The notes beneath the pieces were generated by a model. That model saw nothing but the letters and a program-made list of their open reading frames with translations. It was not told the origin of the DNA and ran no database searches. A DNA stretch of 64,000 nt from Bacillota bacterium (GTDB lineage: Bacteria > Bacillota > Clostridia > Christensenellales > Pumilibacteraceae): positions 2,657 to 66,656 of the forward strand of contig WRGC01000006.1 of assembly GCA_009787385.1 (NCBI GenBank), in the 5' to 3' direction. The stretch's first letter is position 1. Every line of letters starts with the position of its first letter. The position numbers were made by a program, and so were the translations under genes. Positions 47,193 to 49,082 of this stretch are shown here, piece after piece.

Positions 47193-49082
47193 ATGACTAA
47201 ACGATATCTATCTATCTATCTATCTATCTATCTATCTATCATAGTTGTTTTTGCTAGCTTTGTAGTTATATTGCTTAATACAACAATTGATAATAGTTTT
47301 GATAATAATATAAAGATTGTACAAAATAGTGATACAGTTTATAGTGCTATAGATGATGAAGAAGAGTATTACACAATAACATTTGAAAATTATTTATCTC
47401 CTGAAGGGGGGACGATTAAGCCTGTTGAAGCTAAATTTGGGGAGATTGTACCTAATATAGAAGATGAGATGAATGATAGTTCTGCAGGTAAAGGGTGGGT
47501 AATAGGTTGGTTTACAAAAAAATATGGGGAAGGTGATATGTATTATTCTACTAAGGGATATGGATATACATTTGGACAGCTCACTAGATATGGTTTTGAC
47601 AGTGTACACAAGCTAGAAGTACAAAACGATTTGACTTTATATATTCATAGACTACATCCATTAGATGATTCACGAAAATATTATTTGAATCCAAATCTTG
47701 GAGATTTGGTATCTAGAAATTATGTTGATATAACTAGTGGCTCACCATTGCCTAGCAACATTCAAGCACCTACAAGAAATGGATATAAATTTGTGGGATA
47801 TTATGATGCGTTAGAAGAAGATAATACAATCCCTACATCTAGGCAATATTACAATTCTAAAATGGAGTCTCAAATAATAGTTGATGACCAAAGGGATGCT
47901 AGAGTAATGCATGCCAAGTGGGTTGTAAATAGTTATAGTGTAATAACTTTAGATGCCAACGATGGGGAGGGAAGTTCTACTGTTTTTGCAATACAAGGTG
48001 ACAGTATGCCCAAAGCTACTGCACCTACAAGAAAGGGATATAACTTTGTTGGGTATTATGATACTCAAAATCAAGATGGTGGAAAATGTTATTATAATGC
48101 TGACATGTCTAGTGCAATGGATTGGGATATAGATGGTGATGATACTACTCTATATGCTAGGTGGTCACAGGTTGAGTATACAATCAATCTTGACCACAAT
48201 GGTGGATTGAGTGATACCAATTCAGTTGCTGTACAGTATCAACAAGCTTTGCCTAATTTGTCTATCCCAACTAGATATGGTTTTGATTTCGTTGGATATT
48301 ATGATACTCTAAATGATGTTGGCAAACAATATTATGATGCAAATGCAATGGGAGTGATTGATTATGATTTGGATTATGGTATTACTCTTTATGCTAGGTG
48401 GCAGCCAAATAATGAGATAACAACTGTAGTAGTTACACTTGACCAACAAGGTGGCAGTGGTGGTACAGATAGTGTAATTGTTTCTGTTGGTGGTGATATG
48501 CCGACGGCGGTTGCTCCTATTAGAGATTCGTATGAGTTTTTAGGATATTTTGATACAATTGGAATAGGTGGCAAGTGTTATTATGATGCTAATATGAATA
48601 GTGTCAACAAGTGGGATAAAGATAGCGATTCTACACTGTATGCTAGATGGGATTTGATAAAGTATTATACTATCTCATTTGACTTTAATGGTGGAATTGA
48701 CGGGACACCTCAAGTTGTAGTTAGTATAGGTGTCAATATGCCACAAGCTATTGCTCCTAGTAGAGATGGATATATATTTAAGGGCTATTTTGATAGTATA
48801 GATGGTGGAAAGGGATATTATGATGGAGATATGAAGTCAATGAGAGTCTGGGACAAAGAGAAGGATAGTACACTATATGCACAGTGGCAAGAAGAAGAAA
48901 TAATAATTTCGCCACCATCACCCGAAAATGAATTTGGAGAAGATGGCAATATTTGGTTTTATGTAGGATATGGTTTGCTTGGGTTGTTTGTGGTTTCGGG
49001 TGTATTTACTACTATTTTTATAATATTAAAACGCAAGAGAAATTCGGGACATGGAAGGCGTTTTAACAACAATCGCAGATAG
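47193..49082 (+). CDS. Large surface protein with about 7 Listeria-Bacteroides repeats and a C-terminal TM anchor. Its 5' end contains a tetranucleotide repeat.
   Basis: Units of the form ..LD.NGG.G......V..G..MP.A.AP.R.GY.F.GY.D....G..YYD..M.....WD...D.TLYARW. TM YGLLGLFVVSGVFTTIFIIL followed by KRKRNSGHGRRFNNNRR. Confidence 0.8.
   Translation: MTKRYLSIYLSIYLSIIVVFASFVVILLNTTIDNSFDNNIKIVQNSDTVYSAIDDEEEYYTITFENYLSPEGGTIKPVEAKFGEIVPNIEDEMNDSSAGKGWVIGWFTKKYGEGDMYYSTKGYGYTFGQLTRYGFDSVHKLEVQNDLTLYIHRLHPLDDSRKYYLNPNLGDLVSRNYVDITSGSPLPSNIQAPTRNGYKFVGYYDALEEDNTIPTSRQYYNSKMESQIIVDDQRDARVMHAKWVVNSYSVITLDANDGEGSSTVFAIQGDSMPKATAPTRKGYNFVGYYDTQNQDGGKCYYNADMSSAMDWDIDGDDTTLYARWSQVEYTINLDHNGGLSDTNSVAVQYQQALPNLSIPTRYGFDFVGYYDTLNDVGKQYYDANAMGVIDYDLDYGITLYARWQPNNEITTVVVTLDQQGGSGGTDSVIVSVGGDMPTAVAPIRDSYEFLGYFDTIGIGGKCYYDANMNSVNKWDKDSDSTLYARWDLIKYYTISFDFNGGIDGTPQVVVSIGVNMPQAIAPSRDGYIFKGYFDSIDGGKGYYDGDMKSMRVWDKEKDSTLYAQWQEEEIIISPPSPENEFGEDGNIWFYVGYGLLGLFVVSGVFTTIFIILKRKRNSGHGRRFNNNRR
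47205..47240 (+). repeat. (TATC)9 tetranucleotide microsatellite within codons 5-16 of the 47193 gene
   Basis: Nine uninterrupted TATC units were counted directly. They translate in frame as YLSIYLSIYLSI. Confidence 0.95.

Follow-up and report, generated by a model that had tools for sequence, protein, structure and literature searches.

A perfect (TATC)9 tract lies at the start of a gene for a predicted surface protein (47193-49082, forward strand) in a 64-kb window, by which we mean the whole stretch of DNA analysed here, and we consider it probable that slipped-strand mispairing at this tract switches the translation of the protein between ON and OFF. The effects of unit number on the reading frame were obtained in silico, and we infer the slippage itself from the way in which tracts of this type usually behave. 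The mechanism is not new, and the locus is a credible addition to the classical slipped-strand contingency loci. The argument is built on the following features of the gene.

47138-47166, forward strand: weak promoter-like ATGACA-17-TAATAT with a TG extension, 9 of 12 positions matching (consensus match only)
47178-47181, forward strand: GGAG, candidate ribosome-binding site 11 nucleotides (nt) 5' of the ATG (consensus match)
47193-49082, forward strand: gene for a 629-amino-acid (aa) InlB B-repeat (Flg_new, PF09479) protein (open reading frame, Pfam)
47193-47276, forward strand: predicted N-terminal signal-anchor, basic MTKR followed by a 24-residue hydrophobic segment, aa 5-28 (Kyte-Doolittle)
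47205-47240, forward strand: perfect (TATC)9 tetranucleotide tract, codons 5-16, encoding YLSIYLSIYLSI (sequence, Tandem Repeats Finder)
47769-48791, forward strand: five B-repeat units with core motifs PTRNGYKFVGYY, PTRKGYNFVGYY, PTRYGFDFVGYY, PIRDSYEFLGYF and PSRDGYIFKGYF (repeat family D6, Pfam)
48954-49079, forward strand: predicted C-terminal hydrophobic membrane anchor (aa 588-612) and basic KRKR-rich tail KRKRNSGHGRRFNNNRR

The ATG at 47193 is followed by ACT AAA CGA, by the 36 nt of the tract and then by ATA GTT GTT, and the repeat stays within 47205-47240 without extension on either side. Using Tandem Repeats Finder, we obtained a period of 4, 9.0 copies and 100% matches for these positions. 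A preliminary description, made from the letters of the sequence, had placed nine TATC units here from codon 5, in frame and inside the signal-anchor; the count and position agree with the sequence and the repeat finder, and the frame and location agree with the translation and the hydropathy profile. In a simple-repeat scan of the 64-kb window with a minimum of three units, this was the only tetranucleotide tract, and the matches of a 16-nt (TATC)4 probe with up to two mismatches were confined to this tract (0.10 matches expected from 100 shuffles, none of which reached 6). No Rfam match was obtained around the tract and the upstream intergenic element. Every sense frame of (TATC)n cycles through TAT-CTA-TCT-ATC and is read as Y-L-S-I, which is free of stops and mostly hydrophobic, and TAG is present in all three antisense frames; TATC therefore suits a signal peptide, and only on this strand. 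The exact-protein look-up retrieved contigs encoding the 629-aa protein from IMG 3300002238, IMG 3300027670, ENA ERZ27257301 and ENA ERZ27257316. These four contigs, two of them from JGI and two from ENA assemblies, match the window at 100% identity over 5-8 kb. Each has 9 units, and because of the identity they represent one strain.

The product starts MTKRYLSIYLSIYLSIIVVF (longer stretch MTKRYLSIYLSIYLSIIVVFASFVVILL; N-terminus as compared with the paralogues below, MTKRYLSIYLSIYLSI). Its PF09479 match (E=5.9e-22, 78 bits against a gathering cut-off of 27) falls in three stretches, and homologues are named InlB B-repeat-containing protein at NCBI. The 19-residue Kyte-Doolittle mean of the signal-anchor reaches 2.8, and half of its 24-residue hydrophobic segment is supplied by the tract. 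From the Flg_new repeats and the two hydrophobic anchors, the product is predicted to be an exported surface protein, and the earlier designation as a surface protein holds as a prediction on the same grounds.

To obtain the effect of unit number, the gene was rebuilt in silico with 4-14 TATC units. In this frame model, the full protein was produced only with 6, 9 and 12 units (625, 629 and 633 aa), and all other unit numbers gave products of 11-26 aa, with a stop 0-5 codons past the tract. Two stops are met near the tract.

47242-47244, forward strand: TAG met when the unit number is 2 mod 3 (8 units give 15 aa, 11 units give 19 aa)
47255-47257, forward strand: TAG met when the unit number is 1 mod 3 (7 units give 18 aa, 10 units give 22 aa)

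Truncation by the gain or loss of one unit had been anticipated, and the model returned it as a 22-aa or 15-aa product, respectively. A check had also been proposed of whether 8- or 10-unit alleles open an alternative in-frame start; no start rescued the protein. The remaining upstream ATGs terminate after 1 and 10 codons, and the next in-frame starts (TTG at codon 27, 47271, and ATG at codon 93, 47469) both lie past the sole export signal. Because only 6, 9 and 12 units are productive and a single start is usable, the 47193 gene would work as a simple ON/OFF switch that is ON in one of the three unit-number classes. The proposed mechanism can be described as follows. During replication, the nine identical TATC units would misalign and a unit would be gained or lost, as commonly happens in repeats of this kind. 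If the unit number is 6, 9 or 12, translation would run from the ATG at 47193 through the tract into the full protein. The signal-anchor would then owe some of its hydrophobic core to the tract, and the protein would be exported and displayed. With other unit numbers, the ribosome would meet the TAG at 47242 or 47255 and free a peptide of 15-22 aa, and since the starts at codons 27 and 93 are without an export signal, no surface protein would be made in the OFF state.

Paralogues of the gene occur in the same organism. The loci L006, L010 and L182 come from the same metagenomes as the window, have 33-34% GC and carry the same intergenic element of about 190 nt; the tetranucleotide composition of L006 and L010 correlates with that of the window at r = 0.97-0.985 (L182 was not included). 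The N-termini of the paralogues are listed below.

P0036, L006, 625 aa: N-terminus MFKERKISIYLSIYLSIL, perfect (TATC)8 at L006:4041-4072, in four of four contigs
P0122, L010: N-terminus MSKKRSIYLSIIISII, (TATC)3-TATAATAA-(TATC)2 followed by the ATAGT flank as in the window, 23 of 28 positions agreeing
P0123, L182: N-terminus MSKRICLSVYLSIIVLFSC, tract decayed
Neighbour of P0123, L182: N-terminus MSKKNIYLSICLSIVVLFSC, tract decayed
Window gene 30992: N-terminus KISTLYLSLIV, peptide motif only, in different codons

A basic n-region followed by a hydrophobic core at the tract position is kept in five paralogues. The (TATC)8 of P0036 occupies the equivalent place in the signal-anchor, and ATGs in two frames (ATGTATG...) stand upstream of it (L006:4001-4072). 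In the frame model, ATG(-40) and ATG(-19) read through with 5, 8 and 11 units, and ATG(-36), in the other frame, gives an equally signal-like MKKEKVCLRREK and reads through with 6, 9 and 12 units. Two of the three unit-number classes are thus ON from different starts, and P0036 is OFF only with 7 or 10 units. This two-frame arrangement could have arisen by chance, although a rough estimate puts the likelihood of that low. The preliminary description had stated that none of the four paralogous genes in the window carries such a tract; repeat scans agree with this, and the statement does not extend to the rest of the organism, as seen from P0036 and the interrupted and decayed copies.

The (TATC)8 paralogue together with several decayed versions indicates a small family with an expanded ancestral segment. 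The SIYLSI-type segment appears to be an old part of the family's signal peptide, in which long perfect tracts have grown in two genes and degraded in others. In the proposed history, a short ancestral SIYLSI-coding segment would have been enlarged by slippage in two genes of the family; the presence of both expanded and degraded segments implies that slippage has acted at these sites. Since the tracts of other paralogues are interrupted or decayed, purity is not a general property of the segment and the long tracts are expansions, and the existence of pure next to decayed copies argues against purity as a mere by-product of protein constraint. Two related candidates were rejected. A tract remnant in window gene 30992 has likeness at the protein level only, with the DNA at the background level (12 of 28 positions), and no sign was seen of recombination between paralogues via the shared tract, the tracts being short for homologous recombination.

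Similar arrangements were found in other bacteria. When one genome per bacterial or archaeal species was scanned for (TATC)6 or longer, at least 120 stretches matched. Among the matches listed, many are non-coding or resemble contaminating microsatellite DNA, and a subset has a start codon, 3-5 codons, the tract and a long open reading frame with a signal or lipoprotein-like N-terminus. The following loci belong to the organisms named, several of them metagenome-assembled genomes (MAGs).

L172, Flavobacteriaceae MAG: 8 units, OFF, restored by 6 or 9 units (568 or 572 aa)
L175, Haliscomenobacteraceae MAG: 10 units, OFF, restored by 9 or 12 units
L159, MAG labelled Acidobacteriota: 6 units, OFF, restored by 4 or 7 units (824 or 828 aa)
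L176, Trueperaceae MAG: 6 units, OFF, restored by 5 or 8 units (473 or 477 aa)
L152, Flavobacterium jejuense: 7 units, ON
L069, Desulfobacter MAG: 11 units, ON

The four OFF loci are out of frame and yet have intact open reading frames of 282-828 aa, one unit from restoration. Three of the four restored products have Fib_succ_major, SLH or cadherin domains, which are typical of secreted or surface proteins, and the product of L172 is without a Pfam family. Intact frames one unit out of phase are the look expected of reversible switches in genome snapshots, and by analogy they support the switching proposed for the 47193 gene. A (TATC)7 scan of viral contigs gave 47 matches, none related and mostly non-coding microsatellites of giant-virus or eukaryote-like type. 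We put forward as a tentative possibility that the (TATC)n/YLSI signal-peptide start is a recurrent, convergent switch design in several phyla (Firmicutes, Bacteroidota, Deinococcota), which in the organism studied here would serve a small set of independently switching InlB-repeat proteins, one of them three-state with two starts.

Known systems share parts of this arrangement. Haemophilus influenzae lic1A is reported to have a 5' coding (CAAT)n tract with several ATGs in different frames, and this likeness lies with the two-frame ATGs of P0036 and not with the 47193 gene, which has a single usable start. Non-multiple-of-three repeats also occur in the leader-peptide coding region of surface proteins in Neisseria opa, (CTCTT)n, and Streptococcus pyogenes sclB, (CAAAA)n; these differ in that their units are pentanucleotides, their hosts are pathogens and their variation was shown experimentally, and sclB would be a Gram-positive example. 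The closest system is Neisseria meningitidis autA/autB, in which AAGC repeats directly after the start codon, inside the signal sequence, set translation ON or OFF by unit number (PMC5118866). The likeness is that of a coding tetranucleotide tract in a signal sequence with the frame set by unit number, which makes the earlier comparison with the contingency loci of Haemophilus and Neisseria apt. In contrast, autA/autB encode Gram-negative autotransporters with AAGC units, whereas here an InlB-B-repeat protein of an uncultured Firmicute has TATC units, nine in all contigs. The autB repeat is documented to vary among isolates (3-19 units in Neisseria, 17-30 in Haemophilus; PMC5118866), and 9 units fall inside the range of the variable Neisseria autB. 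In Moraxella catarrhalis uspA2, an (AGAT)n repeat of 13-18 units among strains lies 132 bp upstream of the open reading frame and grades transcription (PMC7302503). AGAT belongs to the same repeat class as TATC, of which it is the rotated reverse complement; at uspA2 it is variable in length and controls a surface protein, but it lies upstream of the gene, whereas the tract described here is coding, follows the only export-competent start and would act via the frame. For Staphylococcus aureus icaC, the reversible, RecA-independent gain or loss of (TTTA)n units in the coding region shifts the frame; the tract is short and late in the gene, with truncation at residue 303 of 350, and switching was below 1 in 45,000 divisions (PMC4117637). 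Like the tract in the 47193 gene, which is longer, it is a tetranucleotide repeat in the coding region of a Firmicute, but the icaC product is a polysaccharide-synthesis enzyme and S. aureus does not form spores. A recent review of phase variation describes the switches of Clostridioides difficile as DNA inversions, and the terms 'Firmicutes' and 'Gram-positive' are absent from it. Our literature searches brought up no paper on coding repeats of the TATC type, nor on switching driven by repeats in Firmicutes of the termite gut or in other uncultured Firmicutes.

Several observations weigh against slipped-strand switching of the 47193 gene. No length variation was found among the contigs that carry the gene, which all have 9 units and all come from one strain, and the products that a gene caller would give for OFF alleles (603 aa from TTG 47271, 537 aa from ATG 47469) are not on record. 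Look-ups via the flanking lipoprotein and AddB genes, which are independent of tract length, gave no new allele, and the P0036 protein cluster is a single member across at least five contigs (in a collection from which the 629-aa protein is absent). Both long-tract genes are ON as assembled, nine units are modest next to the 17-30 of Haemophilus autB, and paralogues that do not have the DNA repeat (window 30992 and the two L182 genes) still keep the SIYLSI peptide, so that protein-level constraint with neutral slippage could explain part of the pattern. Unit number does differ between the paralogues (9, 8, interrupted), which is a difference between genes and not between alleles. As for the scope of these searches, the exact-protein look-up favours 9-unit alleles, and among the flanking-gene look-ups only the same 209-kb 9-unit contig spans the tract, the others ending at the intergenic repeat element. 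The consensus of a single population would remain at 9 units even with a few per cent of variant cells. Protein-seeded scans of species genomes and metagenome contigs, in collections apparently without the window's own contigs, gave no orthologue of the 629-aa protein, and its best homologue in a database of 5.8 billion clusters has 40% identity. Because the closest relatives of this protein and P0036 found in the homologue searches are at most 42% identical, comparison between strains was impossible. The main rival reading is that the tract is a tolerated coding microsatellite without a switching role, in which a short SIYLSI-coding segment was enlarged by slippage, YLSI is acceptable in a signal-anchor and rare frameshift variants are purged by selection. 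The motif kept without the DNA repeat, the single hydrophobic peptide read from all three frames, and the in-frame state of both long tracts with no variant allele on record speak for it. We nevertheless regard it as less likely than switching, because there are two independent perfect tracts, of 8 and 9 units, beside the decayed copies of sister genes, stops come at once in both OFF frames, and the out-of-frame loci with intact reading frames in other phyla fit reversible switching and not a structural repeat. In addition, a perfect nine-unit tetranucleotide is generally expected to slip faster, whatever its history (De Bolle et al. 2000).

Three other explanations were considered. Steps of three units (6, 9, 12) could tune how long the signal-anchor is, at 20, 24 or 28 hydrophobic residues, and thereby alter cleavage, retention or topology with the gene never switched off; such variants would retain a plausible n-region and hydrophobic core, and this would also agree with the in-frame assembly of both long-tract genes. 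However, single-unit slippage is generally the norm, so frameshifts should far exceed three-unit steps, and no in-frame length variant was seen among the contigs found (one strain, 9 units), which leaves this explanation improbable. It is more improbable still that the true start lies downstream and that the tract is a 5' untranslated region or promoter spacer grading transcription. The precedent is uspA2, where AGAT, of the same repeat class, acts in this way 132 bp upstream of the gene (PMC7302503), and at the Vibrio locus L102 the real start, MKIMKK, is probably located after the tract; against this, a start at TTG codon 27 or ATG codon 93 would lose the sole N-terminal export signal, and the basic n-region and core at the tract position are conserved in five paralogues. 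Finally, repeats beyond the k-mer of an assembler can be mis-sized, and other assemblies fragment in the region. An assembly or sequencing artefact is nevertheless hardly credible, as the four contigs, obtained with different assemblers and from different samples, show no base difference. Contigs break in the poly-C run of the intergenic element (46851-46859) and not in the TATC tract, and P0036 has an independent 8-unit tract in four contigs.

Regarding the host, the window has 33.5% GC and includes genes for SpoIIIAE-like protein, Gram-positive-type AddA, AddB, [FeFe] hydrogenase and enolase as well as transfer-messenger RNA (tmRNA), and from these genes it can be assigned to the chromosome of an anaerobic endospore-forming Firmicute. 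The genes addA and addB normally form one operon. Here, addA (22614-25880) and addB (49444-52422) are about 23 kb apart, with surface-protein genes, ftsH, enolase, manA and the tmRNA gene between them. One of the samples that yielded the gene, IMG 3300002238, represents hindgut compartment P1 of a termite, Nasutitermes corniger (PMC6841923), which makes the organism an inhabitant of the Nasutitermes hindgut. At NCBI, paralogues of the gene bear the label 'MAG: Firmicutes/Bacillota bacterium'.

44970-45361, reverse strand: tmRNA gene, tag peptide ANKTAKTNVAPAYAPTFAFAA

The intergenic element of about 190 nt is present in about 15 full copies in the 64 kb, where 29 intergenic gaps exceed 100 nt and 14 of these contain a copy; the element was also found on L006, L010 and L182. 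The copies in the window are at the following positions.

5512-5698
10675-10852
13319-13515
15580-15769
29015-29194
29752-29941
30587-30766
31933-32106
33043-33238
35689-35899
37457-37647
38353-38543
46746-46928, forward strand
49218-49397, reverse strand
56250-56435

The element has terminal inverted repeats, GAGTGTACAA..AGAG and CTCTATTTGTACACTC, and a conserved hairpin, TTCTTTTTTG-ACGCC-AAAAAAGAA, and a second conserved stem closes a hypervariable G/C-rich core. It gave no Rfam match and no covariation. It resembles a miniature inverted-repeat transposable element (MITE) or Correia element, and it could act as a bidirectional terminator. Inverted copies flank several surface-protein genes, and the 47193 gene lies between the forward copy at 46746-46928 and the reverse copy at 49218-49397. 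Poly-G or poly-C tracts, which are unusual for a 33% GC genome, were found at 13416-13424 (G9), 38433-38440 (G8) and 46851-46859 (C9), all in the variable core of the element. One poly-G differs between assemblies (G11 at L006:6083-6093, G10 at L007:6083-6092), and the JGI/ENA contigs L003 and L004 start just after the C9 tract; from this difference and these contig starts, the poly-G/C tracts may be variable or hard to assemble.

Other observations were made on the surface-protein family and on the additional loci. The Flg_new gene at 36015-37388 contains a 243-nt tandem duplication (36742-37186, 1.8 copies, 93% matches), which is a recent duplication of one B-repeat unit. Several family members (window 30992-31849, P0002 and P0123) have long Asn/Tyr/Ser-rich low-complexity tails past the C-terminal anchor, for example ...NNYNNYNSFNNNKNSKNSNDWW, and from their position these tails would be cytoplasmic. 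On L006, a P22-like portal gene and CotJB/Mn-catalase (CotJC-type) genes are near P0036. On L010, the gene for an amino-acid permease (L010:2319-3752) contains an A10 homopolymer 11 nt from its start (L010:2330-2339), which is a possible frameshift-prone site; Cas1 and Cas2 genes are immediately upstream of the permease gene.

Most of the contingency loci known to be driven by repeats come from pathogens adapted to a host. The TATC tracts in signal peptides across phyla, several of them assembled in the OFF state, suggest a general and apparently undescribed design rule, and if this multi-phylum switch design is true, contingency loci would be extended from pathogens to uncultured symbionts. 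For annotation, genes with such tracts are easily miscalled as pseudogenes or given wrong starts. If the tract of the 47193 gene varies, it would provide a simple read-count marker of surface heterogeneity in metagenomes, and the benefit to the cell may be stochastic surface variation, which could serve, for instance, in escape from phages or in attachment inside the hindgut of the termite. In that case, an uncultured spore-forming symbiont of the insect gut would use the same bet-hedging device on its InlB-repeat surface proteins.

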